This document shows positions 4,785 through 64,000 of a DNA stretch of 64,000 bases, piece by piece (the stretch's first letter is position 1; the number at the start of each line of letters is the position of its first letter). Origin of the DNA: Eledone cirrhosa (lineage: Eukaryota); assembly GCA_964016885.1 (NCBI GenBank), contig OZ024741.1, positions 335,792,001 to 335,856,000 of the forward strand, read 5' to 3'. A model generated the notes under the pieces. The model saw only the letters and a list, made by a program, of their open reading frames with translations. It ran no database searches and was not told where the DNA came from. Made by a program: the position numbers and the translations under genes.

Positions 4785-6489
4785 CATCATCATCATCATC
4801 ATCATCACCGTTTTACGTCCGTTCTTCCACGCTAGCATGGGTTAGACGGGTTGTCCTGTTGTGGGCAGTGTCTGGTCGGCTGACCATGCCTTGCTCATAC
4901 AGGAACTGATTTGGCTTGATTTCTACAGCTGGATGCCCTTCCTAACACCAACCTCATTTACAGTGAGTGCTGGGTGCTTTTTCGTGGCGCCTACACGTCC
5001 ACTTTACAGTGTGGGCTGGGTGCTTTTTTGCCGTGGCACCTCCACGACCACCTTGCGGTGGGGGGGGGGGGGGGGGCATATTGTTTATATGCTTCAGCAT
5101 GTACCCATGGGAGGTCGGGTACCCTGTATTACTGCGTGACGCCAGAAGTCACGGTCGTGTGTCATTGACTTTGTGAGGTGTAGTTGGGTAAGGTCGGCTT
5201 TTATCACCTCATCCCAAGTCATCTTGGGTCTCCCCACTCCGCGGTTTCCATCAACTTCTAGTGCTCTGCACCTTTTTATGCAGCTGTCATCCTTCATACG
5301 CATCACATGTCCATACCAGCGTAACCGCCTCTCCTGCACGCAGCATTTGATTCCTCTTATGCTCAGTCTCTCTCTCAATTCATTTATGCTTTGTCGTTCA
5401 CGTATATTACTGTTACACATCCATCGGAGCATGCAGGCTTCGTTTCTCTCTAATCTACGTAAGTCTTCCACCTTCAGCGCCCAGGTCTCACTACCATGCA
5501 ACATCGCTGTTCGGATACACGCATCATACAGTCTGCCTTTCATTCTGAGGGAGAAGCCTTTTGCAGCTAGCAGTGGTAGTAGTTCCCTAAACTTCTTCCA
5601 TCCCGTTCTTACCCTAGTTATTGTACTTTCTGAGCACCCACCTCCGTTGCTAATTCGGTCACCTAGGTAGCAGAAGCTGTCTACTGTTTCTACAGGGCCC
5701 TCCCAGAGATTGGTGGTACTTGTTTCCTGTGGCTGTTTGCTTGCTGTTTCAGCACAGCTGCTGCATGTGAATCCTACATTCTTAATTAAGCTTCCTGAGA
5801 TCCCGCTACATCTCTTGTGTACCCATTGTTTGCATTTGGGGCAAAGAATGGAGTTCCTACCTACACCTTTCCTACATACTGAGCAAGGCCATTTCCCTGA
5901 GGGGATCTGGGTTCTGTTTTCTCGTCTACTTATAAAGACCTTAGTCTTTGTCATGTTGACTTTGAGGCCCTTTCTCTCTAGTCCCTGCTTCCAGGTTTGG
6001 AATTTATTCTCTAGTTCTACCATAGATTCAGCTATGAGTGCGAGGTCATCAGCATACAGGAGTTCCCATGGGCATCCGGTCTTAAACTCCTCCGTTATTG
6101 CCTGCAGGACTATGATGAACAGGAGAGGGCTAAGAACAGAGCCCTGGTGGACCCCAACCTGTACGCTAAATTCCTCGCTATACTCATTGCCAATCCTAAC
6201 TTTGCTGACTGCTCCCCTATACATGGCTTGTACCGCTTTCACAAGCCATTCATCTACTCCTAGTTTTCTAAGAGCCCACCAGATTACTGCACGTGGAACT
6301 CTGTCAAAGGCTTTCTCAAGGTCGACAAATGCCAAGTAGAGTGGCTTACTTTTAGCTAGGTACTTTTCCTGTAATTGCCTCACAAGGAAGAGCGCATCAG
6401 TGGTGCCTTTCCCTGGTACAAACCCAAATTGCATCTCGTCTATATTCACCCGGTCCCTAATCAGCTGTGCTATAACTCTTTCTGTTACT
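4785..6489 (-). mobile_element. RTE-clade LINE subfamily A, 5'-truncated, (GAT)n tail
   Basis: Intact RT ORF, 3' UTR with ~39-bp repeats, ends in GGACGTAAAACGGT(GAT)n. Confidence 0.95.
5094..6449 (-). CDS. RTE reverse transcriptase (partial ORF) with internal PHD-type finger
   Basis: QFGF, FVDLEKAFDRV, GVHQGSVLSP, YADD, FCYLG and RLRWYGHVMR motifs; CSVC..CPKC..WVHKRC..FTCSSC between YADD and FCYLG. Confidence 0.92.
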   Translation of the reverse strand: MNIDEMQFGFVPGKGTTDALFLVRQLQEKYLAKSKPLYLAFVDLEKAFDRVPRAVIWWALRKLGVDEWLVKAVQAMYRGAVSKVRIGNEYSEEFSVQVGVHQGSVLSPLLFIIVLQAITEEFKTGCPWELLYADDLALIAESMVELENKFQTWKQGLERKGLKVNMTKTKVFISRRENRTQIPSGKWPCSVCRKGVGRNSILCPKCKQWVHKRCSGISGSLIKNVGFTCSSCAETASKQPQETSTTNLWEGPVETVDSFCYLGDRISNGGGCSESTITRVRTGWKKFRELLPLLAAKGFSLRMKGRLYDACIRTAMLHGSETWALKVEDLRRLERNEACMLRWMCNSNIRERQSINELRERLSIRGIKCCVQERRLRWYGHVMRMKDDSCIKRCRALEVDGNRGVGRPKMTWDEVIKADLTQLHLTKSMTHDRDFWRHAVIQGTRPPMGTC

Positions 6490-6558
6490 TTCTGTTACTT
6501 TCGTGTGTGTGTGTATATATATATACATATGTATATATACACACACACATACATATAT

Positions 6559-6734: not shown

Positions 6735-9435
6735 TCATCATCATCATCATCGTTTAACATCCATCTTCCACGGGAGTTGTCCCACTTGAGGCAAGGTTGG
6801 TCGGGTGACCATGTCTCGCTCATACAGGACTATCTGGCAGGTTTTCTACGGCTCGATGGCCTTCCTAACACCAACCACATTTACAGTGTGGAACTGGGAA
6901 CTTTTTACCGTGTTACCTACACGGCCACATTACAGTGTGGACTGTGTGTTTTTTTGTCGTGACACCTACACGATCTCATTTATTTTGGACTGGATGTTGT
7001 GGTACCAACATAACTTTACAGAGAAAGGGTGGTGTTGGTGGCAGTGGGGTAGGGTGGAGTAGGGGTAGTGGGATGGGGTATATATTTGGTTAAGAAATGC
7101 CTATTGACTGTAGGTTTTGCTTTGTACATAGGCAAGATGGTTCTTCTGTATTACTGCATAGCGCCAAAGATCTCGGTCCAGTGACATTGTCTTAGAGAAG
7201 TGCAAGTGTGTAAGGTCAGAATTTATCAGATCGTCAAGGTTTTTTCTGGGTCTACCTACTCCGTAACTACCATCAATTTTGATAGTCCTGCACTTTTTTA
7301 TGCAGCTGTCGTCTTTCATGCGCATCACGTGACCATACCAAAATAATCTTCTCTCAAGTAAACAGCATCTGATCCCTCTTATTCCTAATTTCTCAATTAG
7401 TTCATTTATGCTTTGTTGTTCACGTATATTACTATTACACATCCAACGGAGCATGCATGCTCCGTTCCTTTCCTGTCTGCGCAAGTCCTCTTCATATAAT
7501 GCCCATGTCTCACTGCCATGTAACATTGCTGTTTGTATACAGGCATCATACAATCTGCCTTTCATTTTTAGAGAGAAACCTTTTGTGGCCAACAGTGGTA
7601 TAAGCTCTCTGAACTTTTTCCATCCCGTTCTGACTCTGGCTACTGTACTTTCAGAACACCTTCCACCACTGCTGATTTCGTCACCCAGCTAACGGAAAAT
7701 GTCTACTATTTCTATAGAACCATCTGGGCAATAGAAGGAGCTAGTATCCTGTGGACACTTGCTACTTATTGCACCTGAGCATTGGCCACATATAAAGTCT
7801 ACGTTCTTAGATAGTTTACCTGTGATCTCACTACATCTTTTATATACCCATGCTTTGCATTTGGGACATAAAATGGAATTTCTGCCTACTCCTTTCCTAC
7901 ACACTGAGCATGGCCATTTCCCTGATGGCACCTGTGCCCTATTTTCCTTTCTACAAACTAGAACTTTAGTCTTAGACAAGTTAACTTTAAGGCCTTTTGA
8001 TTCTAGGCCATGCTTCCATGTTTGGAATTTCTTCTCTAGTTCAGCCATTGATTCAGCTATGAGCGTTAGATCATCTGCGTATAGGAGTTCCCATGGGCAG
8101 CCGATCTTGAACTCCTCTGTTATAGCCTGAAGGGCAATAATCAATAGGAGGGGGCTAAGGATAGAGCCTTGATGAACGCCTACGTTTACACTAAATTCTT
8201 CACAATATTCATTGTTAATTCTAACCTTATTGACTGGTTCATTATACATAGCTTGTATAGCTCTCACAAGCCATTCATCTACACCTAGTTTTCTAAGAGC
8301 CCACCAGATAGTGGAGCGGGGAACTCTGTCAAAGGCTTTCTCCAGGTCTACAAAAGCTAAGTAGAGGGGTTTACTTTTAGCTAGGTACTTCTCTTGCAGT
8401 TGTCGTACAAGGAAAAGAACGTCTGTGGTACTTTTACCTGACACAAACCCAGATCAATTCACTCTCTGATTAGTTGCGCTATAACTCTTTCTGTGACCTT
8501 CATGACCTGGTCAACTAACTTAATGCCTCTATAGTTTCCCCTATCTAGAGCAACCCCTTTACCCTTGTAGCAGTTAATGATGATGATGCTACGCCAGTCT
8601 TTCGGTATGACCTCATTCTGTATTACTTGGTTAACTATACGGGTGACCATAGTGTGTCCCACCATACCAGATGCCTTCAACATCTCAGCAACTATCTCCG
8701 AAGGCCCAGCTGCCTTGCCTGTCTTCATATCTTTGATTGCCTTACTTATTATACTACCTTTAACTTGCACCGCTGTTCCTTCTATTGGATCGATTTGGGG
8801 CAGACTATCTTTTTCCCATTTATTTTCTTCATTTAATAGTCTCTCGTAGTGACACTTCCAGGCTATCTTCTTATCAGTATCAGTGAGCGCAAGTACACCG
8901 TTATCATTACAGACACACTTCTCCCCGACAATATCACGGCTTTCCTTCACACATTGTCTAGCAATCCTGAACACCTCACGTTTTTGGTCCTCACGTTGTA
9001 GAACATGCTTGAACTTTCTATCCTCTGCTACCCTTTTTGCAAGATACACTTGTCTCCTAGCTTCTCTCCTGGCCACTTGATAGTCTTCTCTACTTCCCCC
9101 ATCCTGCAATACTTTCCAAGCCTGCTTTTTGGCCTTGATTGTCTCTTCCACCTTACTGTTCCACCACCAAGTTACTCTCCTCTTGCCAATAGGTCTGCTC
9201 CAGCCACAGATTTCATCCGTTGCTTTCAGCAGGTTCACTTTCAAGAATTGCCACTGTTCCTCTATATCGCACGTCTCTAATTGCTCTTCCATATTGTCAA
9301 AGGCATCAAGTAATAAGCTTTTAAATTTGTCACTGGCTATGGGGTCCTTCAACTTCTATATTCTTCTCCTGAAGGTAGGCCTCCTCTGTCGTCGAGTATG
9401 TCTATTCCTGACTAGGAGGTCACTAACTACTAGGC

Positions 9436-10085: not shown

Positions 10086-10352
10086 TAAATCATTACAGGA
10101 TGTTAAGAGACAATACTGAAAATCTTCACAACAATATGTCCACTAGTAAAGATTCTATAATCATTTGTATTAAACCAGATTTTAGATATTTTCTGCTAAA
10201 ATATTACAGGATGTTCAGAGATATTACTACAAATTTTCACAATGATCTTTCCACTAGTAAATATATTATAAACATTTGAATTAACAAACCCATTTTGGGA
10301 TATTTTCTGCTAAATCATGACAGGTTGTGAAGAGTTAATACTACAAATTTCC
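10086..10352 (+). repeat. ~110-120-bp tandem repeat (same family as 21600-22212)
   Basis: Repeated tattttctgctaaatcattacaggatg...ccactagtaaa units. Confidence 0.75.
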
Positions 10353-10653
10353 ACTATTCTTCCTCAGTCAATATGAAATGTTTGATTTTTTAGCTGCTCA
10401 ATACTACAATGAGATTAACTATATTTTTAAAATCATAAATAATTTTAATTCATTATCTTCAAAATTTATAGCATTTTTGTTATTTCATATATATATATAT
10501 ATGTGTATGTACGTGTATATATATGTGTCATCATCATCATCATCAACGTTTAACGTCCGTGTTCCACGCTTGATATATGTGTGTGTGTGTACGTGCATAT
10601 ATATGTGTATATATATGTATATATATATGTATATATATATATGTATATATATA

Positions 10654-11429: not shown

Positions 11430-11875
11430 TCTAAGGCGGATAAAATTCCCGAGATCCATGGACGAGCTCTCTCCAGCGGTCTCTGTCCCTCATTATCGCT
11501 GCCATATCCTGTATCTCCAACAGACGAGTGTCTGTCCTTAGGGCATCAACATATGTTAACCTTGGTCTTCCTCTTCTAGTGTGTCCATGTAGGGGCTCCC
11601 AAAGGAGCACTGAGTGCAATGTCAACTCTGGATGTCTCCTCTGGATGTCTCCTCTGTGTCACTTTTGAGCTGACTTTTGGGATGCTCCCATACAGCTCTG
11701 AGTTTTTCATCCTCAGTGTATACTGATTAATGTTCAGAGCCATCCTCAGCATTCTCGTGTAGCACCCATCCACCATCTGAGTGAGTTTCTTGGTCAGTGT
11801 CCAAGTCTCAGACCCATACAGCAGCACAGACTCCACTACAGCAATGAAGAGGCGGATTTTCAGGTCTCTACGAAT
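11430..11875 (-). mobile_element. 3' fragment of a distinct RTE-like LINE lineage embedded in (TA)n
   Basis: [35 protein letters not shown] and RRGRPRLTYVD..DRDRWR, frameshifted. Confidence 0.85.
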
Positions 11876-11886
11876 ATGTATATACA

Positions 11887-11919
<33 letters not shown>

Positions 11920-12048
11920 ATATATATATGTATATATGTATATGTATATATGTATATATATATATGTATATATGTATATATGTATATATGTATATATATA
12001 TATGTATATATGTATATGTATATATGTATATATATATATGTATATATG

Positions 12049-12082
<34 letters not shown>

Positions 12083-12302
12083 ATTAAGTTAAAAATGTAC
12101 ATCCACATATGTATACTGAAATACTAGTATGCATATGAATACACACACGTATACATATGTAGATGTACCGATTTTTTCACTGGTCACTTTACTGTGAGTG
12201 TCCAGCTATTCTGTATGTAAACATACAGACAAACCGGTTTTTAGAGTCATACTGGTTTTTGAGGAAACACCTTTCCTCTATTCTCCAGAAAGCCAGACAA
12301 GG

Positions 12303-12347
12303 AATATTGAACTAGTTTCGATGTTGTTACATCTCATCAGCAATATT
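12303..12347 (-). ncRNA. Intact minimal type-I hammerhead ribozyme
   Basis: Minus strand: aatattg CTGATGA gatgt-aaca-acatc GAAA ctag TT caatatt; perfect 7-bp stem I and 5-bp stem II, palindromic stem III (ACTAGT), GUU cleavage triplet. Confidence 0.88.
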
Positions 12348-12549
12348 TACCTATCTTCCGGCCTTTCTAGAGAATCGTAAAAGCACATATCGTTATATGC
12401 TTTTTCTATGAAAATTAGTAGTGGGCAGACTAATTTGCATAGAGCGTGAGTAAGTACGTACCGGTTCAACGGAGACGATAAAAACAAATAACGAAACGAA
12501 ATTAAATTTCGTTTCGTTTGTAACTCACTTTTGTATGACTTACAAACGA

Positions 12550-13243
12550 AACGAATATAGTGAAGAGTTTAGCGTAAAAGTTGGCGTCCATCAGGGCTCT
12601 GTTCTCAGCCCCCTACTATTTATTATTGCCCTTCAGGCTATAACAGAGGAGTTCAAGACCGGCTGCCCATGGGAACTCCTATACGCAGACGACCTGACAC
12701 TCATAGCGGAATCAATGGCCGAGCTAGAGAAGAAATTCCAAACATGGAAGCACGGCCTAGAATCAAAAGGCCTTAAAATTAACCTGGCTAAGACTAAAGT
12801 TCTAGTTTGTAGGAAAGAAAATAAGGCGGCGGTCCCTTCTGGGAAATGGTCGTGCTCGGTGTGTAGGAAAGGCGTAGGTAGAAACTCCATTTTATGTCCT
12901 AAATGCAAAGTATGGGTGCATAAAAGATGTAGTGGGATCACAGGTAAGCTAACTAAGAACATAGATTTTACATGTGGCAGGTACTCTGGTGCAATAAGTA
13001 GCAGCAAGTGCCCACAAAATTCTAGCTCTTTCAATTGCGCAGAGGTTCTATAGAAATAGTGGACAGTTTCCGTTACCTGGGTGATAAAATCAGCAGTGGG
13101 GGAGGGTGCTCTGAAAGTACAGTAGCTAGAGTCAGAACTGGTTGGAAAAAGTTCAGAGAGCTTATACCACTATTAGCTGCTAAAGGGTTCTCCCTAAAAG
13201 TGGAACACGGACGTTAAACGTTGATGATGATGATGATGATGAT
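12550..13243 (+). mobile_element. RTE subfamily B, 5'-truncated and internally deleted
   Basis: RT from NEYSEEF to KGFSLK, then jumps directly to the terminal tggaacacggacgttaaacgtt(gat)n at 13201. Confidence 0.9.
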
Positions 13244-16023: not shown

Positions 16024-16073
16024 TCTTGTCTGATGACCCTATGATAAACAAGTGAAATTCCAGAATAACAAGA
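16024..16073 (+). ncRNA. Hammerhead ribozyme motif with decayed stem II
   Basis: tcttgt CTGATGA ccctatgataaacaagt GAAA ttc-ca-gaa TA acaaga; stems I and III pair, stem II poorly. Confidence 0.65.
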
Positions 16074-21599: not shown

Positions 21600-22212
21600 A
21601 AATTAAAGTCTAGTTTACTGCAAATTTTCGCTAGATGATGATCTCACTACTAGTAATGATATTATAAACATTTGAATTTACAAACTTGTTTTTAGATATT
21701 TTCTGCTAAATCATTCCCGGATTTTAATAGAAAATACTGCAAATTGTTCACAATAATATCCACACTTGTAAAGTTCCTATAAACATGAATTAACAAACCT
21801 ATTTTATGATAGATAGTTTTTGTTAAATCATTGCAAATTTTTCACAAGTCTTCACACTAGTAAAGCTACTATAAACCTTTGAACAAACCTGTTTTTAGAT
21901 ATTATAAGCGATATTACTGAGAATGTTCACTACAATCTGTCCACCAGTAAAGCTACTATGAACATTTGAATTAACTACTTTTGGGATATTTTTGGCTAAA
22001 TCATTATAGGATGTTAGGGGATAATATTATAAATTTTCACAACAATCTGTCCACCAGTAAAGCTACTATAAATATTTGAGTTAACAAACATGTTTTTAGA
22101 CATTTTCTGCTACATCATTATAGGATGTTATGATATAATACTGCAAATTTTCACAATCTTCACACTAGTAAAGACACTACAAACATTTGAATTAACAAAC
22201 CTGTTTTTAGAT
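21600..22212 (+). repeat. ~110-120-bp tandem repeat array (about 5 diverged units)
   Basis: Recurrent agtaaagctactataaacatttgaattaacaaacctgtttttagatattttctgctaaatcatt. Confidence 0.8.
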
Positions 22213-25040: not shown

Positions 25041-25101
25041 TATTCTATTATATATATTTCAAGGATACCAAAACTTTGGTATGCTTTCATCAGATAAAAT
25101 A
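25041..25101 (-). ncRNA. Intact minimal type-I hammerhead ribozyme (family H-A)
   Basis: Minus strand: tattttat CTGATGA aagcatacca-aagttt-tggtatcctt GAAA tatata TA atagaata. Confidence 0.85.
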
Positions 25102-25178
25102 CGAAGTGTGTTTTATAAATGTTGACATAACCAAGAAAAATATACCTTAACGGTTCAAGTTTTCCTTGGATATATATA

Positions 25179-28100
25179 CTATGTAAAAACTGCTACAACT
25201 CTGGGAAACTAAACCAGAACAACCTGCCACCCTCTACACACCATCATAAACTGCGAGCAGGGTACAAATTGTTGTCCTTAAATGCTCGCAGTTTATGCAA
25301 CAAGATACATCTGTTCGAATCCTACGTCAGAAGCATCGACCCTGACTTCATCACAGTCACGGAAACATGGGCACATTCCTTACTCTGTGATGGGGTTTTC
25401 ACCATTACTGGGTACAACCTTTTCCGCAAGGACCGCATTAACCGCCGTGGTGGTGGTGTGATGGTCTACGTTCGTTCAAACTTTTCGGTAATTCCTTGCG
25501 TTGATTTGAACGAATCACAGGAAGAAGTTTTTTTCTGTGACATACGTATGACCATGTCAACACTTCTGCTTGGTGTTGTTTATCGCCCCCCAAACTACCA
25601 TCAGGACACACAGCTTTGCGATATCCTCAGAGTTGCTGCCAAGAAAACAGCCACTTATGTGTTTATTGCAGGTGACTTCAATCATCCTGAGATCGATTGG
25701 GAAACCTTTCGTTGGCCACAGGGTGCAAACGATTTCCTTGAACTAGTGCTGGACTCAAACTGGTCACAAGTAGTCACCTCTCCAACAAGAGGTGACAACA
25801 CTTTGGACCTGATCTTCACCACTACTCCTGAAGTGGTTATCAGTTGTACTACTGAGGAACCTCTAGGCGACTCTGATCATGCTATGATCATTGCCAATCT
25901 GGCACTTGAGGGCAGCAACAAAAACCAGAGCCATCTCCAATCTGCTTGCTTTGATTGGAAGAGGGCAGATTGGAACTTGTACTGCACTGAGCTACAGCGC
26001 CCAAACTGGCATGAGATGTATAACTCTGGAGATGTGAACTCTATACTCCAGAGCATCCTGGACTCAATATGGATAGCGTGTGCAGCATCAGTGCGACGGA
26101 AGCGGAAAAATAACCACCCCAAAAGTGCAATCTGGGAAACTTCAGCAGTCCGACTTGCCAGGAAAGAACGTCGGAACGCTGAACGGGAATATAAACTGCA
26201 TAGATCAGATGCCAACAGAAAAAAGCGGAATAAATCTTCTAACCATCTCAAGCAAGTGACAAAGAAGGCAGTGCTTGAATTTGAACAGTGCATCGCAACC
26301 AATCCCGACAGTAAGGTGTTCTGGAAATATGTTCATTCAAAGCAGAGACCTCACTCTCCAGTTGGTCCTCTTCGCAATCCCCATACAAGCCAGATCACTG
26401 ACGATCCCAAGGAATGCGCAGAACTCATTGCTGAGTGCTATGCAAGTATTTTTACTGTTGAAAACCAGAATGTACCATCTCCACCATCTCTAACATCAAA
26501 TTCCATAACAACTATGGAATTTACACCTGCAATGTTGCGACGTCACCTTTTGCGGGGATTTCCTTTTGCGCCAGCTTTCTTTTTTCTTTCAATACTGTCT
26601 CAGCAATGGTGCTACTCCAGAGCAGTGGAAAACTGCCAGTGTCATTCCCCTGTTCAAAAAGGGCAACCGCATGTCACCTGTCAACTATCGTCCAGTCAGT
26701 CTTACTAGCTGTATGGCCAAACTGATGGAATCCTGTGTCAGAGAAACACTTTGGAACTTCTGGAGCTCTCACAGCCTCATCCGGCCCTCACAGTTTGGAT
26801 TTATCCCTAACTCCAGCTGCTGTGATCAGCTTATCGAGTTCCTTGAGGACATCACCCGGATCACTGACAGCGGCTCATGGGTGGATGTTGTTTACCTTGA
26901 CTTTGCTAAGGCTTTTAATTCTGTGCCACACAAAAGACTTATGGCAAAACTCTCTGCAATGGGTGTGAGGGATGATCTTTTCGACTGGCTGAAATCCTTC
27001 ATTCTCAGCCGAAAGGAAGTAGTCACAGTTCTAGGACAGCATTCTTCACCATATGAGATGTCATCTGGTGTACCACAGGGATCTGTTCTTGGTCCTCTTT
27101 TGTTTGTGGCATATATTAATGACATAGATGCCAACTTACAGAATGCCACGGTACTAAAATATGCAGATGACATCAAGCTGTACCTTGAAATCAAAAGGAC
27201 TGATCCTGAAATTTACAACTCTTTCCTACAATCAGACCTGGACACAATGCAGCAATGGATCACAGACTGGCAACTGAAGCTGGCTGTGGACAAGTGTACC
27301 ACCATGCATTTTGGAAGGAAAAATCCAGCGTCCACATACTCCCTCCACAACACTGACATCAAAAAGTCCTCTTGTGAACGTGACCTGGGCATTACTGTCA
27401 GCAACGATTTGCGTTGGACAAAGCATGTCTCTAAGATTGTCAAGAAGGCCGAGGGTGTCTTGGCATCACTCAGCAAGACCTTTGTTAGCCGCTCTCCAGC
27501 CATCTATTTAAAACTGTATACAGCTATGGTGCGACCACACTTGGAATTCGCATCATCAGTCTGGAACCCCTATCTTGCTCGGAACATTGACCTCCTGGAA
27601 ACTGTTCAGAGACGTGCAACCAAGCGCATACCCTCCATCAGACACCTACCATACTCTGAACGCCTTGCTTCCCTGGGCATGAATTCATTGAAGCTCCGAC
27701 GTCTGGCAGTGGACTTGGTGAATACCCACAAAGTTTTTAACCATCTCGCCAACTGCAACCCTGAGCGCCTCTTTGATCTCCATGTATCTAACACACGTGG
27801 ACATGCCTACAAGATAAGAAAACAGCACAGCTCCCATGACTTTCGCAGACATTTTTTCACGCTCAGAGTTGCTGAAACATGGAACAAACTGCCTGCGTCA
27901 ATTGTTAGCTGCCGAGACACTGCATCCTTTAAGACACTCATGCTTCCCGAAATACGCCAAAACTACACCTGATGTGCCCCTTCCATACACATGCACACAT
28001 GTGTGCACTGTTCATTTTACTGATGTTTGTGCATTGCCCTATGTACTGTACATGCACTTTTTTGATGGGTTGTGGTGCACCTGGGCACTGTGCACAATAT

Positions 28101-28723: not shown

Positions 28724-28790
28724 TATTTTATCTGATGAGGACGTACTGTTGAAGTTAACTCAGTACCTCTGAAATATGTATAATAAAATA
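28724..28790 (+). ncRNA. Intact minimal type-I hammerhead ribozyme (H-A-related)
   Basis: tattttat CTGATGA ggacgtactg-ttgaagttaact-cagtacctct GAAA tatgta TA ataaaata; perfect 8-bp stem I. Confidence 0.82.
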
Positions 28791-29625: not shown

Positions 29626-31058
29626 TAATAAAGAAATTATTGTGTACAGTGCTCAGGTGCACTACACTTCATCAAAGGTGTATGTATAGTACATAGAATA
29701 ATGTACAAATGTCAGGAAAGTGTATTGTGTATGAGTCATGATATACATGTGTGCATATGTATGGAGGGGGAATATCAGGTGTAGTGTTGGCGAATTTCAG
29801 GAAGCATGGAGTTTTTAAAGGATGCTGTGTCCCGGCAACTAACAACTGATGCTGGCAGTTTGTTCCATGCTTCAGCAACTCTGAGCATGAAAAAATGTTT
29901 CCAAAAGTCATGGGAGCTGTGCTGTTTTCTGACTTTGTAGGCATGCCCACAGGTGTTACACACATGGAATTAAAAAAGGTGCTCAGGGTTGTTGTTGGCA
30001 AGATGGTTAATAATTTTGTGGGTGTCTACCAAGTCAGTTGCCAGACATCGGAGCTTTAATGTATCCACACTTTGGGAAACAAGGCATTCAGAGTATGGTA
30101 GATGCCTGATAGAGGGTATTCGCTTGGTTGCACATCTCTGAACAGTTTCCAGGAGGTCAATGTTCTGAGCAAGATAGGGGTTCCAGACTGGTGATGCAAA
30201 TTCTAAGTGTGGCCAGACCATAGTTATATACAACTTTAAATAGATAGCTGGAGAGTGACTGACAAAGGTCTTGCTGAGTGATGCCTTCTTGACAATTTTA
30301 GAGAGAGAGGTGCTTTGTCTAATGCAAATCGCTACTGATAGTAATGCACAGGTCATGTTCACAAGAAGACTTCTTGATATTAGTGTTGTGGAGGGAGTAT
30401 GTGGATGCTGGGCTTTCCTCCCAAAATGCATGGTGGTACACTTGTCCACAGCCAGCTTGAGTTGTCAGTCTGTGATCCGTTGCTGCATTGTGTCCAGGTC
30501 TGATTGTATGAAAGATCTATAGCGTTCAGGATCTGCCCTTTTTATCTCAAGGTATAGCTTGATGTCATCTACATAATTCAGCAATGTGACATTGTTTAAG
30601 TTGTCATCTATGTTATTAATATATGCTAAAACAAAAGGAGACCAAGAACAGATTCCTGTGGTACACCAGATGACATCTCATAGGGTGAAAAATGCTGCTG
30701 TCCTTGAACCGTGACTATCACTTTTCGATTGAGAATGAAGGACTTCAACCAGTTAAAAAGATCATCTCTCACACCCATTGCAGAGAGTTTTGTCATAAGT
30801 CTTTTGTGTGGCACAGAATTGAAAGCTTTAGCAAAGTCAAGGTAAACAACATCCACCCATGAGCTGTCATCAGTGATCCGGGTGATGTCTTCAAGAAACT
30901 CGATAAGTTGATCACAGCAGCTGGAGTTAGGGATAAATCCGAATTGCGAGGGCCGGATAAGGCTGTGAGAATTCCAGAAGTTCCAGAGTGTATCTCTGAC
31001 ATAGGATTCTATTGGTTTGGCAATGCAGCTAATAAGACTGACTGGACGATAGTTGACA
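29626..31058 (-). mobile_element. Decayed 5'-truncated CR1-type LINE, inverted relative to 25179-28245
   Basis: ORF pieces 30626-31090, 29970-30449 and 29775-29963 match the RT of the plus-strand copy. Confidence 0.92.
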
Positions 31059-32142
31059 GTGTATATATGCACACATATACATACTTTCATATATATACAT
31101 ACATGAGGTCAGTAGCCCCGCATCAATACTAACTAGGTCCATGTAGACCCGTCCAACCCTTGCTTGAAGGGAGAGCGAACAATGATGATTTAACAAATGA
31201 TATATATATTTGTGTTATTTTAATATAATTTAATTATAAGAATTCTGTTATAGAAATTATATCAGGATGGGAAATGGGCAAGGAGGTCAGAATTGAATTA
31301 AACTGTATTTCAAAATATCTTGCTTATGAGGGTAAAAAATACCTTATTTAGTCATTCTATGAGAGTATCTTGGTCAGCCCATAAACTTTTCAGCTGACAC
31401 TTGTATTTCAAAAAAGTCACTAAGACAATCTGTCCTACCATATTAGATATAATCATCATCATCACTACTATCAGTTTGATCTTGGATTGGTAGGCTGGTG
31501 TAATGAAGAAGTCCAGAGCCAGTACCTTGGTATATAGTCCCCTCTCCTCCCTAATCTCTTGGCATAGAGGAGTGGGGGTCCAGAGCCTGTATCTTAGTAT
31601 TTAGTCCTCCCTGATGTGTTGGAGTGGTCTGGTGGTTCCAGAGCCAGTGTCTTATAGTATAGCTCTTTCCCCTCCCCTCCCTGATATCTTGGAATGGTGT
31701 GGGGTTCCAGAACCAGAGTCTTGGTATATAGTCTCCTCCTCTTCTTGATGACTTGGAGTGGGGTGTGGTGGGTCTAGAACCAATATCTTGGTATACAGTC
31801 CAATCCCCTCCCTGATGACTTGGAGTGGTGGGGAGGTCCAGAGCCAGTGTTTTAACCCCTCCCTTCCTCCTTCTATATGTGTTCATCTTCTCCCAGTTAT
31901 ATACCCCATTCTCCAAAATAAAGATAACTTTAGACTACAGTTTGGTAAGCTGTTGACTCTAGTTTTTGATACTAATGGAAGAAAGAGTGTAAAATACTTC
32001 ACATTTTTGTGATACTAAACCATCTAAAACTTCCCCTGGTTCTCTGATACAAAACTACTAATTTTAAAATGTTTGTATTTATCTAAAAACCTTCCATCTT
32101 AACTTTATGTAAGAACATTTGTTATGTTCGAAACACCAAATT

Positions 32143-33545: not shown

Positions 33546-35145
33546 ATGCTGGGGCACCACCATGATTTCGTTAGTTCTATCAACCCCAATATATATGTTT
33601 TCTTGTTTGGTACTTATTTTATTAATCCATTTTTGCCGAACTGCTAAGTTACAGGACATAAACTACAAACACACATAGTATATAAATTTATATATATATA
33701 TGTGGGGGCGTGTGTTAGTCACTAGGAAGAGTGGTTAACATTTTCATACTTTAGGTTTATTAAATAACAACATTTATACACATTTCAGAGGCATTAGACA
33801 ACTATTACATGGGTCTAACATATTGTCAGACAGGAGTTAATAATGTATGTGTTAGGCAGATTATGGGACATGAACTGATAATGGTCCAAGATTTGACCAT
33901 TGAAATATGTATAGTGTTTTTTGCAACATTAAAACTTTAAAAGGGATATTTCCAGTCTGGATTTCTGTTGTTTTAAATAAGTAAATAAATAAATACACAC
34001 ACACACATATGCACACATACATATATACATATGGAGAATGGGGTATATAACTGGGAGAAGATGAACACATATAGAGGGAGGAAGGGAGGGGTTAAATACT
34101 AAAACACTGGCTCTGGACCTCCCCACCACTCCAAGTCATCAGGGAGAGGATTGGACTGTATACCAAGATATTGGTTCTAGACCCACCACACCCCACTCCA
34201 AGTCATCAAGAAGAGGAGGAGACTATATACCAAGACTCTGGTTCTGGAACCCCACACCATTCCAAGATATCAGGGAGGGGAGGGGAAAGAGCTATACTAT
34301 AAGACACTGGCTCTGGAACCACCAGACCACTCCAACACATCAGGGAGGACTAAATACTAAGACACAGGCTCTGGACCCCCACTCCTCTATGCCAAGAGAT
34401 TAGGGAGGAGAGGGGACTATATACCAAGGTACTGGCTCTGGACTCCTTCATTACACCAGCCTACCAATCCAAGATCAAACTGATAGTAGTGATGATGATG
34501 ATTATATCTAATATGGTAGGACAGATTGTCTTAGTGACTTTTTTGAAATACAAGTGTCAGCTGAAAAGTTTATGGGCTGACCAAGATACTCTCATAGAAT
34601 GACTAAATGAGGTATTTTTTACCCTCATAAGCAAGATATTTTGAAATACAGTTTACTTCAATTCTGACCTCCTTGCCCATTTCCTATCCTGATATAATTT
34701 CTATAACTGAATTCTTATAATTAAATTATATTAAAATAACATACATACACAGAGCAGCAGCATTTCTTGTACTGAGAAGGACTCATGCAAGCATGGAACA
34801 ACAGACATTAAAGTGATGATGATGACACACCACACATACATATATGTTTATCACATGTAACATGCCAATATGTCTGTAAAGCTAAAGTGGGGAGATGTAG
34901 GAAGAAGCAATAATATAAATCGAAATGTTGGCCTCAATTATTGTTGTACATGATTAATAAGAATTCTTTGTTAGTCTATCACTGAAAAATACCATTTTTT
35001 CTTGCCTTGAAACAATTATCCTGGGAAATATATACCATTATCACCTTTTCAGTTTCCATTAGTAATTAGAGCTTCCATTGTGGTTCAAGTGGTTTACATC
35101 TTGGGGGCATTGCTGTCGAATGTCTCTTGTATATACTTATTTCAC

Positions 35146-48404: not shown

Positions 48405-48705
48405 CGTCATGAATGACCATGGAATTTTGCACAAAGAATGTTCCCCACCAATGCACAAGTCCGGGTAAGGTTGTTTGTGAAGACCAGTAGTCGTTCATGC
48501 ATGCCAGTCTCCCATCTCCATGCCACCTATGTTGTCCAAGGGAAAGGCAAAAGCCAATACAGCTTGGTATAGCAACTCATTTCTATGGCTGAGTGAACTT
48601 GAACAACATGAACTAAAGTGTCTTGCTCAAGAACACAATGCAAAGCTGATCTGAGAATTGAACTCAAAACTTCACATTTGTAAACCCGACACTCTAACCA
48701 ATAAG
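48405..48705 (-). mobile_element. CORE-type tRNA SINE
   Basis: Reverse homolog of 155-498. Confidence 0.75.
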
Positions 48706-48714
48706 CCTATATAT

Positions 48715-50099
48715 ATATAGTGAGGAATTTAGCGTACAGGTTGGTGTCCACCAGGGCTCTGTTCTTAGCCCTCTCCTGTTCATCATAGTCCTGCAGGCAA
48801 TAATGGAGGAGTTTAAGACCGGATGCCCATGGGAACTCCTGTATGCTGATGACCTCGCACTTATAGCTGAATCTATGGTAGAACTAGAGAAGAAATTCCA
48901 AACTTGGAAGCAAGGACTAGAAAGAAAGGGTCTCAAAGTCAACATGACAAAGACTAAGGTCCTTGTAAGTAGACGAGAAAACAGAACCCAGATCCCCTCA
49001 GGGACATGGCCTTGCTCAGTATGTAGGAAAGGTGTAGGTAGGAACTCCATTCTCTGCCCCAAATGCAAACAATGGGTACACAAGAGATGTAGCGGGATCT
49101 CAGGAAGCTTAATTAAGAATGTAGGCTTCACATGCAGCAGCTGTACTGGGACAGCAAGCAGCAAACAGCCACAGGAAACAAGTACCACCAATCTCTGGGA
49201 GGGCTCTGTCGAGACAGTAGACAGCTTCTGCTACCTAGGTGACCGAATTAGCAGCAGAGGTGGGTGTTCAGAAAGTACAATAACTAGGGGAAGAAGTTCA
49301 GGGAACTACTGCCACTGCTAGCTGCAAAAGGCTTCTCCCTCAAAATGAAAGGCAGACTGTATGATGCGTGTATCCGAACAGCAATGTTACATGGTAGTGA
49401 GACCTGGGCGCTGAAGGTGGAAGACTTACGTAGATTAGAGAGAAACGAAGCCTGCATGCTCCGATGGATGTGTAATAGTAATATACGTGACTGACAAAGC
49501 ATAAATGAATTGAGAGAGAGACTGAGCATAAGAGGAATCAAATGCTGTGTGCAGGAGAGGCGGTTGCATTGGTATGGACATGTGATGTGTATGAAGGATG
49601 ACAGCTGCATAAAAAGGTGCAGAGCACTAGAAGTCAATGGAAACTACGGAGTGGGGAGACCCAAGATGACCTGGGATGAGGTGATAAAAGCCGACCTTAC
49701 CCAATTACACCTCTCCAAGGCGATGGCACACGACCGTGACCTCTGGCGTCACGCAGTAATACAGAGTACCCGACCTCCCATGGGTACAAGCTGAAGCATA
49801 TAGACAATATGCCCCCACACCCTCCCACTGCAAGGTGGTTGTGGAGGTGCCACGGCAAAAAAGCACCCAGCCCACACTGTAAAGTGGACGTGTAGGCGCC
49901 ACGAAAAAGCACCCAGCACTCACTGTAAATGAGGTTGGTGTTAGGAAGGGCATCCAGCTGTAGAAATCAAGTCAAATCAGTTCCTGTATGAGCAAGGCAT
50001 GGTCAGCCGACCAGACACTATCACAACAGGACAACCTCTCTAACCCATGCTAGCGTGGAAGAACGGACGTAAAACGGTGATGATGATGATGATGATGAT
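48715..50099 (+). mobile_element. RTE subfamily A, 5'-truncated
   Basis: ORF pieces 48803-49321 and 49510-49794, highly similar to 4785-6185; (GAT)n tail. Confidence 0.95.
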
Positions 50100-57730: not shown

Positions 57731-57927
57731 ATCAAATATATATATATAAATATATATATAATGGAACCCACTCAACTAATTTATGAAGCATGCTTCATCT
57801 GTCCACTGTAACTTCATCTGTCCACTATATCTTCATATGACCACTATAACTTCATCTGTCCACTATACCTTCATCTGTTCACTGTAGATTCATCTGTTCA
57901 CTATACCTTCATATGTCCACAATATAT

Positions 57928-60352
57928 GATGCTTTTGATAGTAAGGAAGAGCAATTAAAGTCGTACAATAGAGAGGAACAGTGGGAATTCCTGAAAGCTA
58001 ACCTGCTGAAGGCAACAGATGAAATCTGTGGCTGGAGCAGACCTATAGGCAGGAGGAGAGTAACTTGGTGGTGGAGGAGTCAATCAAGCCAAAAATCAGG
58101 CTTGGAAAGCATGGCAGGATGGGGGAAGTAGAGAAGACTATCAAGTGGCCAGGAGGGAAGTTAGGAGACAAGTGTACTTCGCCAGAAGGGAAGCAGAGGA
58201 AAGAAAGTTCAAGCATGTTCTACAACGAGAGGACCAAAAACGTGAGGTGTTCAGGATTGCTAGGCAATGTGTCAAGGAAAACCGTGATATTGTCAGGGAG
58301 AAGTGTGTCCCAAATCAATCCAATAGAGGGACCAGCAGTGCAAGTTGAAGGTAGTATAATAAGTAAGGTGGTTAAAGATATGAAGACAGGCAAGGCGGCT
58401 GGGTCTTCGGAAATAGTTGCTGGAATGGTGGGACACACTATAGTCACCCGGATAGTAAACCAAGTCATACAGAATGGGGTCGTTCCGAAGGACTGGCATA
58501 GCAGCATCATCATTAACTGCTACAAGAGTAAAGGAGATGCCCTAGATAGGGGAAACTATAGAGGCATTAAATTAATTGACCAGGTCATGAAGGTCACAGA
58601 AAAAGTAATAGCGCAACTAATCAGAGAGCGAATTGATCTAGATGAAATGCAGTTCGGGTTTGTGTCAGGTAAAAGTACAACAGACGCTCTTTTCATTGTA
58701 CGACAACTACAGGAGAAGTACCTACCTAAAAGTAAACCCCTATACTTAGCTTTTGTCAAGTGTGAGAAAGCCTTTGACAGAGTACCCCGCTCCATTATCT
58801 GGTGGGCTCTTAAAAAACTAGGTGTAGATGAATGGCTTGTGAGAGCTATACAAGCCATGTATAAAGAAACAGTCAGCAAGGTTAGAATTAACAACGAATA
58901 TAGTGAAGAGTTTAGCGTAAAAGTTGGTGTTCATCAGGGCTCCGTCCTTAACCCCCTACTATTTATTATTGCCCTTCAGGCTATAACAGAGGAGTTCAAG
59001 ACCGGCTGCCCATGGGAACTCCTATACGCAGATGATCTAACGCTCATAGCTGAATCAATGGCTGAACTAGAGAAGAAATTCCAAACATGGAAGTATGGCC
59101 TAGAATCAAAAGGCCTTAAAATTAACCTGTCTAAGACTAAAGTTCTAGTTTGTAGGAAGGAAAATAAGGCACTGGTCCCATCTGGGAAATGGCCATACTC
59201 AGTGTGTAGGAAAGGAGTAGGCAGAAACTCAATTTTATGTCCCAAATGCAAAGTATGGGTGCATAAAAGATGTAGTGGGATCACAGGTAAGCTAACTAAG
59301 AATATAGATTTTATATGTGGCTGGTGCTCAGGTGCAATAAGTAGCAGCAAGTGCCCACAGAATACTAGCTCATTCCATTGCACAGATGGTTCTATAGAAA
59401 TAGTGGACACCTTCCGTTACCTGGGTGACAAAATCAGAAGTGGTGGAGGATGCTCTGAAAGTACAGTAGCTAGAGTCAGAACGGGATGGAAAAAGTTCAG
59501 AGAGCTTATACCACTATTGGCCGCTAAAGGGTTCTCTCTAAAAATGAAAGGCTGGCTGTATGATGCCTGCATACGAACAGCAATGTTACGAGGCAGTGAG
59601 ACCTGGGCATTGTGTGCAGAGGATATACGCAGACTGGAGAGGAACGAAGCTTGCATGCTCCGTTGGATGTGTAATAGTAATATACGTGAACGGCAAAGCA
59701 TAAATGAACTAAGGGAGAAATTAGGAATAAGAGGAATCAGATGTTGTTTACTCGAGAGAAGACTACGTTGGTATGGTCACGTGATGCGCATGAAAGACGA
59801 CAGCTGTATAAAAAAGTGCAGGGTGATCAAAATAGACGGTAGCCACGGAGTAGGCAGACCCAGAAAAACCTGGGACGACTTGATAAATTCCGACCTCACA
59901 CACTTACACCTCTCCAAGACAAAGTCACTGGACCGAGATCTTTGGCGTTACACAGTAATACAGAAGACCCGCCTTGCCTAAGTACAAAGCGAAACCTACA
60001 TTCAGTAGGCACCTCTTAACAAAAATACATCCTATCCACACGACCTCTTTCGATGTAAAGTTATGTTGGTACCACAACATCCAGTCCGAAATAAATGAGG
60101 TCATGTAGGTGTCACAACAAAAAACACACAGTCCACGCTGTAATGTGGCCGTGTAGGTAACATGGTAAAAACCTATCAGTCCACACTGTAAACGTGGTTG
60201 GTGTTAGGAAGGGCATCCAGCCGTAGAAAACCCACCAGACAGTCCTATACGAGCAAGACAACCAATCTTGCCTCAAGTGGGAAAATTCCAGTCCAAACCC
60301 ATGCAAAGGTAGAAGATGGACGTTAAACGATGATGATGATGATGATGATGAT
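57928..60352 (+). mobile_element. RTE subfamily B, 5'-truncated, inserted in the 19-bp satellite
   Basis: Long RT ORF, (GAT)n tail, TSD cacaatatat at 57918-57927 and 60356-60365. Confidence 0.95.
58065..59981 (+). CDS. RTE reverse transcriptase ORF (true frame from ~58310; N-terminus is an off-frame artefact of a deletion)
   Basis: NYRGIKL, QFGF, GVHQGSVL, YADD, FRYLG, RLRWYGHVMR, GRPRKTW. Confidence 0.88.
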   Translation: MVVEESIKPKIRLGKHGRMGEVEKTIKWPGGKLGDKCTSPEGKQRKESSSMFYNERTKNVRCSGLLGNVSRKTVILSGRSVSQINPIEGPAVQVEGSIISKVVKDMKTGKAAGSSEIVAGMVGHTIVTRIVNQVIQNGVVPKDWHSSIIINCYKSKGDALDRGNYRGIKLIDQVMKVTEKVIAQLIRERIDLDEMQFGFVSGKSTTDALFIVRQLQEKYLPKSKPLYLAFVKCEKAFDRVPRSIIWWALKKLGVDEWLVRAIQAMYKETVSKVRINNEYSEEFSVKVGVHQGSVLNPLLFIIALQAITEEFKTGCPWELLYADDLTLIAESMAELEKKFQTWKYGLESKGLKINLSKTKVLVCRKENKALVPSGKWPYSVCRKGVGRNSILCPKCKVWVHKRCSGITGKLTKNIDFICGWCSGAISSSKCPQNTSSFHCTDGSIEIVDTFRYLGDKIRSGGGCSESTVARVRTGWKKFRELIPLLAAKGFSLKMKGWLYDACIRTAMLRGSETWALCAEDIRRLERNEACMLRWMCNSNIRERQSINELREKLGIRGIRCCLLERRLRWYGHVMRMKDDSCIKKCRVIKIDGSHGVGRPRKTWDDLINSDLTHLHLSKTKSLDRDLWRYTVIQKTRLA

Positions 60353-60353
60353 G

Positions 60354-63300
60354 TTCACAATATATTCCTCTGTCCACTATACTTTCATCTGACCACTATA
60401 TCTTCATATCTCCACTATACTTTCATCTGTCCACTATACCTTCATCTCTCCACTGTAGATTCATCTGTCCACTATACCTTCATATGTCCACTATACTTTT
60501 ATCTGTCCACTATATCTTCATATGTCCACTATACCTTCATGTGTCCACTATACCTTCATCTGTCCACTATACTTTCATCTGTCCACTATACCTTCATCTG
60601 TCCACTATACCTTCATCTGTCCACTATACCTTCATCTGTCCACTATATCTTAATATGTCCACTATACCTTCATCTGTCCACTATATCTTCATATGTCCAC
60701 TATACCTTCATCTGTCCACTATACCTTCAACTGTCCACTATACTTTCATCTGTCCACTATACCTTCATCTGTCCACTATACCTTCATCTGTCCACTATAC
60801 CTTCATCTGTCCACTATATCTTCATATGTCCACTATACCTTCATCTGTCCACTATATCTTCATCTGTCCACTATACCTTCATATGTCCACTGTACCTTCA
60901 TCTGTCCACTGTAGATTCCTCTGTCCACTGTACCTTCATATGTCCACTATACCTTCATCTGTCCACTATATCTTCATCTGTCCACTATACCTTCATATGT
61001 CCACTATATCTTCATCTGTCCACTATACCTTCATCTGTCCACTATATCTTCATCTGTCCACTATACCTTCATCTCTCCACTATATCTTCATATGTCCACT
61101 ATACCTTCATCTGTCCACTATATCTTCATATGTCCACTATATCTTCATATGTCCACTATACCTTCATCTGTCCACTATATCTTCATATGTCCACTATATC
61201 TTCATATGTCCACTATATCTTCATATGTCCACTATACCTTCATCTGTCCACTATATCTTCATATGTCCACTATATCTTCATATGTCCACTATACCTTCAT
61301 CTGTCCACTATATCTTCATATGTCCACTATATCTTCATATGTCCACTATACCTTCATCTGTCCACTATATCTTCATATGTCCACTATATCTTCATATGTC
61401 CACTATACCTTCATATGTCCACTATATCTTCATATGTCCACTATACCTTCATCTGTCCACTATATCTTCATATGTCCACTGTACCTTCATCTGTCCACTA
61501 TACCTTCATCTATATTCACAATATATTCCTCTGTCCACTATACTTTCATCTGACCACTATATCTTCATATGTCCACTATACTTTCATCTGTCCACTATAC
61601 TTTCATCTGTCCACTATACCTTCATCTGTCCACTATACCTTCATATGTCCACTCTACTTTCATCTGTCCACTATATCTTCATATGTCCACTATACCTTCA
61701 TATGTCCACTATACCTTCATTATGTCCACTATACCTTCATATGTCCACTATACCTTCATCTGTCCACTATATCTTCATATGTCCACTATACCTTCATCTG
61801 TCCACTGTACCTTCATATGTCCACTGTACCTTCATATGTCCACTGTAGATTCATCTGTCCACTATACCTTCATATGTCCACTATACCTTCATATGTCCAC
61901 TGTAGATTCATCTGTCCACTATATCTTCATATGTCCACTATACCTTCATCTGTCCACTATACCTTCATCTGTCCACTGTAGATTCATCTGTCCACTATAC
62001 CTTCATATGTCCACTATACCTTCATATGTCCACTCTACTTTCATCTGTCCACTGTAGATTCCTCTGTCCACTATACCTTCATATGTCCACTATATCTTCA
62101 TATGTCCACTATACCTTCATCTGTCCACTATACCTTCCTCTGTCCACTATATCTTCATCTGTCCACTATATCTTCATCTGTCCACTATATCTTCATCTGT
62201 CCACTATATCTTCATATGTCCACTATACCTTCATCTGTCCACTATACCTTCATCTGTCCACTATACCTTCATCTGTCCACTATATCTTCATCTGTCCACT
62301 ATATCTTCATCTGTCCACTATATCTTCATATGTCCACTATACCTTCATCTGTCCACTATACCTTCATCTGTCCACTATACCTTCATCTGTCCACTATATC
62401 TTCATCTGTCCACTATATCTTCATCTGTCCACTATATCTTCATATGTCCACTATACCTTCATCTGTCCACTATACCTTCCTCTGTCCACTATATCTTCAT
62501 CTGTCCACTATATCTTCATCTGTCCACTATACTTTCACATGTCCACTATACCTTCATCTGTCCACTATACTTTCATATGTCCACTATATCTTCATCTGTC
62601 CACTATATCTTCATCTGTCCACTATACTTTCATCTGTCCACTATACCTTCATCTGTCCACTATACCTTCATCTGTCCACTATACCTTCATCTGTCCACTA
62701 TATCTTCATCTGTCCACTATATCTTCATCTGTCCACTATATCTTCATATGTCCACTATACCTTCATCTGTCCACTATACCATCATCTGTCCACTATACCT
62801 TCATCTGTCCACTATACCTTCATATGTCCACTATACCTTCATATGTCCACTATACCTTCATCTGTCCACTATACCTTCATATGTCCACTATACCTTCCTC
62901 TGTCCACTATATCTTCATCTGTCCACTATATCTTCATATGTCCACTATACCTTCATCTGTCCACTATATCTTAATCTGTCCACTATACTTTCATCTGTCC
63001 ACTATACCTTCATCTGTCCACTATACCTTCATCTGTCCACTATATCTTCATATGTCCACTATATCTTCATATGTCCACTATACCTTCATCTGTCCACTAT
63101 ATCTTCATATGTCCACTGTACCTTCATCTGTCCACTATACCTTCATCTATATTCACAATATATTCCTCTGTCCACTATACTTTCATCTGACCACTATATC
63201 TTCATATGTCCACTATACTTTCATCTGTCCACTATACTTTCATCTGTCCACTATACCTTCATCTGTCCACTATACCTTCATATGTCCACTCTACTTTCAT

Positions 63301-64000
63301 CTGTCCACTATATCTTCATATGTCCACTATACCTTCATATGTCCACTATACCTTCATTATGTCCACTATACCTTCATATGTCCACTATACCTTCATCTGT
63401 CCACTATATCTTCATATGTCCACTATACCTTCATCTGTCCACTGTACCTTCATATGTCCACTGTACCTTCATCTGTCCACTATACCTTCATCTGTCCACT
63501 GTAGATTCATCTGTCCACTATACCTTCATATGTCCACTATACCTTCATATGTCCACTCTACTTTCATCTGTCCACTGTAGATTCCTCTGTCCACTATACC
63601 TTCATATGTCCACTATATCTTCATATGTCCACTATACCTTCATCTGTCCACTATATCTTCATCTGTCCACTATATCTTCATCTGTCCACTATATCTTCAT
63701 ATGTCCACTATACCTTCATCTGTCCACTATACCTTCCTCTGTCCACTATACCTTCATCTGTCCACTATATCTTCATCTGACCACTGTACCTTCATCTGTC
63801 CACTATACCTTCATCTGTCCACTATACCTTCATCTGTCCACTATATCTTCATCTGTCCACTATATCTTCATCTGTCCACTATATCTTCATATGTCCACTA
63901 TACCTTCATCTGTCCACTATACCTTCCTCTGTCCACTATATCTTCATCTGTCCACTATATCTTCATCTGTCCACTATACTTTCACATGTCCACTATACCT
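60354..64000. repeat. 19-bp satellite (ctgtccactataccttcat)n; short leading block at 57790-57927
   Basis: About 190 tandem units running off the window end. Confidence 0.97.

Follow-up and report, generated by a model that had tools for sequence, protein, structure and literature searches.

Canonical type I hammerhead ribozymes of animals have helices of 6 and 4 bp with a contact between their loops, and a helix III of 1-2 bp closed by a palindromic loop; with so short a palindromic helix III, a second copy is required (PMC4209133). Among the repeats that carry such ribozymes, retrozymes have been described with repeats of 150-450 bp and RNAs of 170-400 nt (PMC7229834), and a repeat range of 51-972 bp has also been given, together with the view that solo monomer retrozymes are offspring unable to transpose (10.64898/2026.07.22.740005). 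A (TA)n target and an inverted 5′ piece are hallmarks of Penelope insertions (10.1101/2021.04.23.441226). The purified Penelope protein of the anole cleaves AT-rich DNA and starts priming within its RNA, and its insertion in vitro does not need hammerhead cleavage (PMC11167929). In the giant squid genome, 235 hammerhead matches have been reported (PMC6962438).

Here we analysed a 64-kb stretch of DNA, referred to as the window, in which a hammerhead had been noted. We consider it likely that positions 12082-12540 are a solo, circularly permuted copy of a young, many-copy, non-coding repeat of about 470 nt with a full-length type I hammerhead, and that this repeat represents a new family of animal non-LTR retrozymes, probably moved by a Penelope-like element; the solo copy itself is predicted to be a poor cutter. 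Searches of the literature on octopus and cephalopod hammerheads and on metazoan retrozymes did not find the family; the supplements of PMC7229834 and 10.64898/2026.07.22.740005 may list related repeats.

The hammerhead and its full-length form

The minus strand at 12347-12303, read directly from the sequence, is a complete type I hammerhead (Table 1). All seven pairs of stem I and all five of stem II are Watson-Crick, and the canonical core is present (C3-A9, G12-A14, A15.1-U16.1, and an H17 that is U). A strict type I descriptor (stem I of at least 6 pairs, stem II of at least 4, no mismatches) found this motif as its sole match in the window, and none of 200 dinucleotide shuffles matched; a relaxed descriptor gave two further matches (28732 on the plus and 25093 on the minus strand) against a shuffle mean of 0.045. 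The motif is thus a genuine type I hammerhead and the most intact one in the window, the two relaxed matches being minimal-type relics. The preliminary description of a complete core and of perfect stems of 7 and 5 bp was borne out, and the predicted cut between 12310 and 12309 is numbered correctly. Folded in isolation, the 45-mer is no better than its shuffles (z -1.5).

Table 1. Positions in the window of the hammerhead, the repeat unit and the surrounding insertion
Feature	Positions	Strand	Basis
Full-length canonical type I hammerhead	12296-12355	-	alignment to Rfam RF02275 HH9
Distal 5-bp helix	12355-12351/12300-12296	-	HH9 alignment
4-by-3 internal loop 1	12350-12347 with 12303-12301	-	HH9 alignment
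Minimal hammerhead	12303-12347	-	sequence; strict descriptor scan with 200 shuffles
Stem I, 5′ and 3′ strands	12347-12341, 12309-12303	-	
Core C3-A9	12340-12334	-	
Stem II	12333-12329/12324-12320	-	
G12-A15.1	12319-12316	-	
Four-letter palindromic insert	12315-12312	-	
U16.1	12311	-	
U17	12310	-	
Predicted cut, U17/C1.1	12310/12309	-	
8-nt palindrome, A14 to U17; inner 6 nt predicted as shared stem III of a double hammerhead	12310-12317	-	sequence; dimer co-fold
96-nt rod with the hammerhead at its tip, helix I prolonged into the rod	12280-12375	-	-35.3 kcal/mol, z -5.4, 0/200 shuffles
Solo, circularly permuted repeat copy, 459 of about 470 nt	12082-12540	-	junction in X5/X4 contigs, unit arithmetic, fold, Pfam scan
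(TA)n/(TATG)n microsatellite, likely target site, on the side from which cDNA synthesis would begin	11874-12082	.	sequence; 5 X1 contigs with (AT)n
15-nt fold-back, exact reverse complement of 12508-12522	12541-12555	+	sequence
Internal fragment of RTE-like LINE (RT and PHD finger), opposite strand, outside the element	12550-13205	+	Pfam scan, sequence, run contigs

The Rfam scan of the whole window found no family at its gathering score. The best match of the hammerhead was to RF02275 Hammerhead_HH9, the amniote intronic hammerhead, with 36.5 bits (E 1.1e-7) against a gathering cut-off of 52, and the full-length motif accordingly stays under the gathering threshold for hammerhead clan CL00010. 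The HH9 alignment gives a helix I of 6 bp, a helix II of 4 bp and a loop 2 of 6 nt, the seventh pair of stem I and the fifth of stem II being loop 1 and loop 2 positions in that model, and helix III is a single pair capped by the palindromic tetraloop. The partners of the tertiary contact are present, namely U1.7 in loop 1 (12303) and the last A of loop 2 (12324). The size of 45 nt first proposed is too small, its boundary dropping the loop 1 partner of this contact. U1.7 may be partly engaged with A2.7 (pairing P 0.63 in the fold prediction), and pairing of that sort gave an approximately twofold lower rate in an engineered ribozyme (PMC11875169).

A14 and U17 are complementary, so that the palindrome, earlier taken as 6 nt, is 8 nt long; the earlier suggestion of a dimer-type motif is supported. 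In minimal hammerheads U17 is slower than C17, and GUU is slower than GUC. In the literature on hammerhead cleavage, we found no paper with rates for U17 versus C17. The GUU cut triplet conforms to the NUH rule (PMC3884650; PMC3138052).

Two minimal Penelope-type hammerhead relics (28724-28790 on the plus strand and 25041-25101 on the minus strand) have an extra base after A9, a long stem II, an AU-rich 8-bp stem I and A17; their similarity is 71% over 70 nt and does not extend to the flanks. Decayed hammerhead-like cores were also seen at 16030 (+) and 20162 (-), with core and GAAA but partial stems; both fail the relaxed descriptor and give no hammerhead fold. A 657-bp inverted duplication (31198-31854 and 34100-34756, 98%) contains a 67-bp tandem with a CTGATGA heptamer, without a downstream GAAA core. 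Other repeats of the window are a 19-bp satellite of 191 copies with strong strand skew (60365-64000, running past the window end, and 57793-57924) and two related tandem repeats of 110-111 bp (10086-10354 and 21910-22211).

The repeat unit, its copies and its insertion

The unit that carries the hammerhead has a G + C content of 35% and folds on the minus strand into a branched multi-hairpin structure of -161.7 kcal/mol (z -12.4). The z score of its plus strand is -8.1 (30 shuffles per strand), and those of 13 control stretches of unit length range from -4.0 to +4.0. The CpG observed/expected ratio is 1.15 in the unit versus 0.40 for the window, and a ratio of at least 1.15 was reached in 3 of 260 overlapping 458-nt windows. 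The preliminary description had placed a relatively CpG-rich host unit at about 12130-12550; the CpG richness was confirmed there (1.24), and the bounds are corrected to 12082-12540. No second copy of the unit was found in the 64-kb window, no ORF of the unit matched Pfam, the tRNA scan found no tRNA, and no hammerhead core occurs on the plus strand of the unit. The unit has a perfect 13-bp hairpin of its own (12490-12518), which precedes a U-rich run on the minus strand and may act in binding or in termination.

No match was obtained in metagenome_contigs from either of two exact-pattern scans. Two loci in viral_contigs were rejected as relatives; they have only core and stem II letters in common with the unit, and their flanks are unrelated. 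A phage contig (L001, 3001-3028, minus strand) carries a hammerhead-core-like string with a stem II, unrelated to the unit.

Parts of the unit were found in 20 of the 24 public sequencing runs listed, under 17 organism labels and from 16 studies. No RNA run was listed among the holders, which bears neither way on expression; X12, which has the label of X1 and 88 million letters, might be a transcriptome. Contigs from runs X1, X4 and X5 were aligned to 12095-12640, which covers nearly all of the unit and a 90-nt part of the adjoining LINE, and the evidence on copies is drawn from these three. In a fourth run, X22 (raw Hi-C reads labelled organism B, sampled at about 1 in 100), 0 reads aligned, a result given no weight. 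X1 gave 2012 contigs on this interval, those on the LINE part counted in, of which 650 were at least 99% identical, 645 were 95-99%, 457 were 90-95% and 260 were below. Summed depth in X1 was 2e5-7e5 along the unit and about 1e6 on the LINE, a measure that is not a copy number. These data suggest that the family is young and numbers thousands of copies or more, and the youth proposed earlier for the host family is in keeping with the contig identities.

Closure of the unit was seen in X5, where a 497-nt contig (record 17) spans 12095-12540, continues for 24 letters and then re-enters the unit. A contig of X4 ends in 24 letters identical to this 12540-to-12095 junction. The 459 nt of the copy plus the 11 missing give, after indel correction for X5, a unit of 467 nt, equal to 497 minus 30. 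The end-to-start junction was thus present in X4 and X5, and it was not among the X1 loose ends listed (88 more are unlisted). Because the X5 contig re-enters itself at 467 nt, the element is, as judged from the contigs, periodic or circular and has no room for an ORF. The closure could be explained by tandem arrays, by RNA circles or by overlapping permuted monomers; even with no other form present, dispersed monomers that are permuted could yield a circular assembly graph.

Thirty-three variant sites were found on 12095-12640; the 11 that fall in the LINE part were excluded, which leaves 22 for the unit. At the stem II pair 10.2-11.2, A-U is replaced by U-A on both sides, in 52.0% and 53.1% of X1 depth; both changes are in the single X4 contig that covers the site and neither is in X5. 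This double change counts as one event, and hairpin correction at the DNA level could cause the same. Relative to the predicted fold, the 22 unit variants comprise 9 at unpaired positions, 6 one-sided changes that keep the pair, 3 rescued by the partner and 4 that break a pair, where about 9.3 breaks are expected (P(<=4) = 0.01 with rescue counted); with rescue uncounted, 7 of the 22 break pairs (P = 0.20). The variants are not independent, and the support from such structure-compatible variation is moderate. None of the 22 falls on the 16 core and palindrome positions besides N17, a weak result with about 0.8 expected. At the cut site itself, U17 makes up 84% of X1 depth and C17 the other 16%; C17 is in both X5 contigs that cover the site and in none of X4. 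The earlier label of a textbook hammerhead is not supported as worded, the cut triplet being GUU in a family that also has GUC.

Read along the plus strand, the copy starts at the end of the (TA)n tract and spans one lap less 11 nt (Table 1). A second start point is marked by five X1 contigs with (AT)n loose ends before 12478. At the other end, the last 6 nt of the fold-back are common to the start of the LINE fragment (microhomology), and in X1, X4 and X5 the loose ends before 12550 carry the usual upstream sequence of the LINE. No target-site duplication was recognisable around the insertion. Pfam scanning of 150 ORFs of at least 70 aa (low-complexity ORFs and the region beyond 60200 excluded) found no Penelope RT/GIY-YIG ORF; it found LINE domains only and no clear host exon. 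Taking the cDNA as made from left to right, the template would have been the hammerhead strand. Since the copy ends about 230 nt from the predicted cut site, the template was presumably a circle or a multimer rather than a linear monomer with two cleaved ends.

The RTE-like LINE, with its PHD finger directly after the RT, is abundant in the window (5097-6494, 7692-8453, 12550-13205, 48698-49318 and 58023-59978), and the best named relatives of its protein are from Hydractinia (58%) and Branchiostoma (49-53%), which points to no more than a marine invertebrate; the repeats of the window may be octopus-like. A second, near-intact LINE on the plus strand (25131-27972) encodes an AP endonuclease and an RT in two overlapping frames and has an inverted partial copy near 29745-31108.

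Predicted cleavage and the origin of the copy

In the predicted monomer fold, C3, U4 and G5 are paired with the palindrome (P 0.92-0.93, 0.93 and 0.73) and the A15.1-U16.1 pair does not form (P 0.00), in all four contexts. When the whole unit is folded, stems I and II are predicted for the linear and the circular form alike. Two copies are predicted to co-fold into a classical double hammerhead, with stem I strands swapped and the core free. The dimer gains 3.4 kcal/mol over two monomers, but with A14 paired to U17 in that fold; in the catalytic register the gain is 1.6 kcal/mol, all of these being secondary-structure predictions without tertiary energy. With its short helix III and palindromic loop, the motif is of the kind predicted to depend on a dimer. 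These folds suggest that the monomer would misfold and need a second copy, and that the solo locus would cut poorly.

An axolotl hammerhead with the same type of stem III gave 6% cleavage in an hour as a monomer and cleaved far better as a dimer (PMC7229834), and one of nine predicted dimers from Xenopus was cleaved (10.64898/2026.07.22.740005). From the fold predictions and these cleavage results, tandem copies of the family are probably active, and the solo locus probably shows little activity. As the solo monomer is predicted to be off and the axolotl monomer reached 6%, a negative assay of the 45-mer would not count against activity of the family. The motif had been put forward as the best candidate for activity, and it is indeed the most intact one in the window and of the dimer type; the expectation of activity at this very locus is not supported, with a solo copy, a misfolded monomer (C3, U4 and G5 paired with the palindrome at P 0.93, 0.93 and 0.73) and a dimer gain of only 1.6-3.4 kcal/mol.

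We propose that head-to-tail copies elsewhere would be transcribed on the minus strand, as in the known pathway. Neighbouring hammerheads would exchange the strands of stem I and form a common stem III by way of the palindrome, and the resulting double hammerhead would cut after position 17 to give unit-length RNA, which a host RtcB-type ligase would close into a circle. In a lone hammerhead, pairing of the core CUG with the palindrome would give an off state that protects the circle. A Penelope-type RT/endonuclease would then nick a (TA)n tract and prime inside the RNA. At 12082-12540, one lap less 11 nt would have been copied, and the cDNA end would have folded back over 15 nt and been joined to LINE DNA via the six shared letters.

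Several observations argue for a retrozyme. The motif is beyond chance (0 of 200 shuffles) and has canonical loop sizes in the HH9 alignment; the fold of the hammerhead strand reaches z -12.4, against -4.0 to +4.0 in controls; the X5 contig and X4 junction give a periodicity of 467 nt, and X1 has many young copies; and stem II shows a compensatory change, with few variants that break pairs. To these are added the (TA)n target and inverted 5′ piece, with Penelope priming at AT-rich cuts, the predicted dimer in the form of a classical double hammerhead, and the second, minimal Penelope-type hammerhead family in the same window. Counting against it are the single copy in the window, with no head-to-tail array seen directly, the U17 majority (84%), the dimer gain of 1.6 kcal/mol, the cleavage of one in nine Xenopus dimers, the lack of a Penelope ORF and of a target-site duplication, and a unit of 467-470 nt, longer than the repeats and RNAs described in PMC7229834.

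A bolder version, which we regard as doubtful, takes the copy as the direct footprint of one reverse-transcription lap round a 470-nt RNA circle, primed at TA, stopped 11 nt short and folded back; the palindrome, lengthened to 8 nt by U17, and its pairing with the core would be a tuned lock that keeps circles while tandem transcripts still cut. If this were true, single-lap copies with scattered starts would offer a population-scale test of the circRNA-template step. Its boldest extension would have the same circle moving between many animal species.

The TA target and the fold-back would also suit a unit that served as pseudo-LTR in an autonomous Penelope-like element and was left here as a truncated solo end, and most Penelope insertions are 5′-truncated single termini, with retrozymes related to pLTRs (10.64898/2026.07.22.740005). 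We consider this unlikely: the unit closes at 467 nt with no space for an ORF, no PLE ORF was found in the window, and animal pLTR hammerheads are of the minimal type (helix II of 7-8 bp and an extra base after A9; PMC4209133), where the present one is canonical. The family could also by now be a satellite or dispersed repeat that spreads at the DNA level without ribozyme action, its hammerhead, with U17 in the majority, being a largely silenced relic. U17 holds 84% of X1 depth and is able to pair with A14, the predicted dimer gain is marginal, eight of nine Xenopus dimers were inactive (10.64898/2026.07.22.740005), and the anole Penelope protein inserts in vitro independently of hammerhead cleavage (PMC11167929). 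However, U17 fits the NUH rule (PMC3884650), stem II carries a compensatory change amid structure-compatible variation, and the absence of variants from the core and palindrome positions besides N17 (0 of 22 at 16 positions, about 0.8 expected) points weakly the same way, and we judge such a relic improbable.

It is very unlikely that the unit represents a viroid-like circular RNA which spreads horizontally and has entered many animal genomes. Its parts do occur in 20 of the 24 runs listed, with 17 labels and 16 studies, and the variant mix of X5 (C17 in 2 of 2 contigs) is unlike that of X1. Yet the host LINE with identical loose ends is also in X4 and X5 (2 of 16 other labels), the depths of unit and LINE are similar (188 vs 329-444 in X4, 11-15 vs 25-28 in X5, about 5e5 vs 1e6 in X1), and there is no opposite-strand ribozyme; an RNA of two polarities was rejected on the absence of a plus-strand core from the unit. 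The 17 labels are more simply explained by host DNA traces or related species, and the variant mix of X5 is compatible with a related species. As to a chance motif, a domesticated intronic ribozyme of the HH9 kind or a 5′ ribozyme belonging to the neighbouring LINE, HH9 is indeed the top Rfam match and the LINE does abut the unit, but we find these readings hardly credible and rejected each of them. Chance is opposed by the 0 of 200 shuffles, domestication by the young, high-copy repeat and an HH9 score of 36.5, below 52, and the LINE lies on the other strand, begins mid-RT and has other copies that extend upstream without the unit. The reading as a solo retrozyme copy remains the one we prefer.

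Comparison with known ribozyme-bearing repeats

HH9 resembles the full-length motif in its helix I of 6 bp, 4x3 loop 1, helix II of 4 bp and 6-nt loop 2; the motif differs in its score (36.5 versus 52), in a stem III that is 5 nt shorter than the model and in belonging to a young repeat. The minimal hammerheads of Penelope pLTRs share with it the type I order, the palindromic helix III, the dependence on a dimer and the Penelope-type insertion marks. They have, however, a long helix II (7-8 bp) and one base more after A9 (PMC4209133), as well as a short helix I with a poor loop 1. None of these is seen at 12296-12355, whereas the relics at 28732 and 25093 have them. An extra base after A9, a helix II of 7-8 bp and an adjacent RT/GIY-YIG ORF are all absent here.

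The solo 'monomer' retrozymes of Li, Clavereau and Pollet 2026 (10.64898/2026.07.22.740005) are dispersed single full units from tandem families, and the present copy resembles them. For an 'active' retrozyme locus Li et al. 2026 ask for two units, and one copy is present here. Their survey is mainly of vertebrates, and permuted single-lap fold-back copies such as the present one are not described in its available part. Near-unit permuted solo copies would test the copying of circles by Penelope, which is proposed but undemonstrated in the literature as available.

The closest systems are the metazoan non-LTR retrozymes (PMC7229834), especially axolotl HHR_Amex1/Rtz331, which likewise has a canonical type I hammerhead with a single-pair helix III and a palindromic tetraloop. 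The element bears most testable marks of these retrozymes: a low-GC (35%), non-coding unit that carries a canonical type I hammerhead, many copies, and a unit RNA predicted to be highly self-paired (z -12.4) with the hammerhead arms free to form. The retrozymes of PMC7229834 are similarly low-GC, non-coding and of many copies, with a highly self-paired RNA and co-occurring minimal Penelope hammerheads. The unit differs from them in its U17 majority and in its length of 467-470 nt, which is above the range of 150-450 bp and inside that of 51-972 bp. Invertebrate retrozyme motifs usually have a more stable helix III of 2 bp and cleave as monomers (PMC7229834), whereas the type found here, in an apparent marine invertebrate, is the dimer-dependent stem III of amphibians. 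The natural U17/C17 polymorphism offers a way to examine whether a slower ribozyme is better at spreading. The repeat would add one family, at the long end of the size range, to the known ribozyme-bearing repeats of animals.
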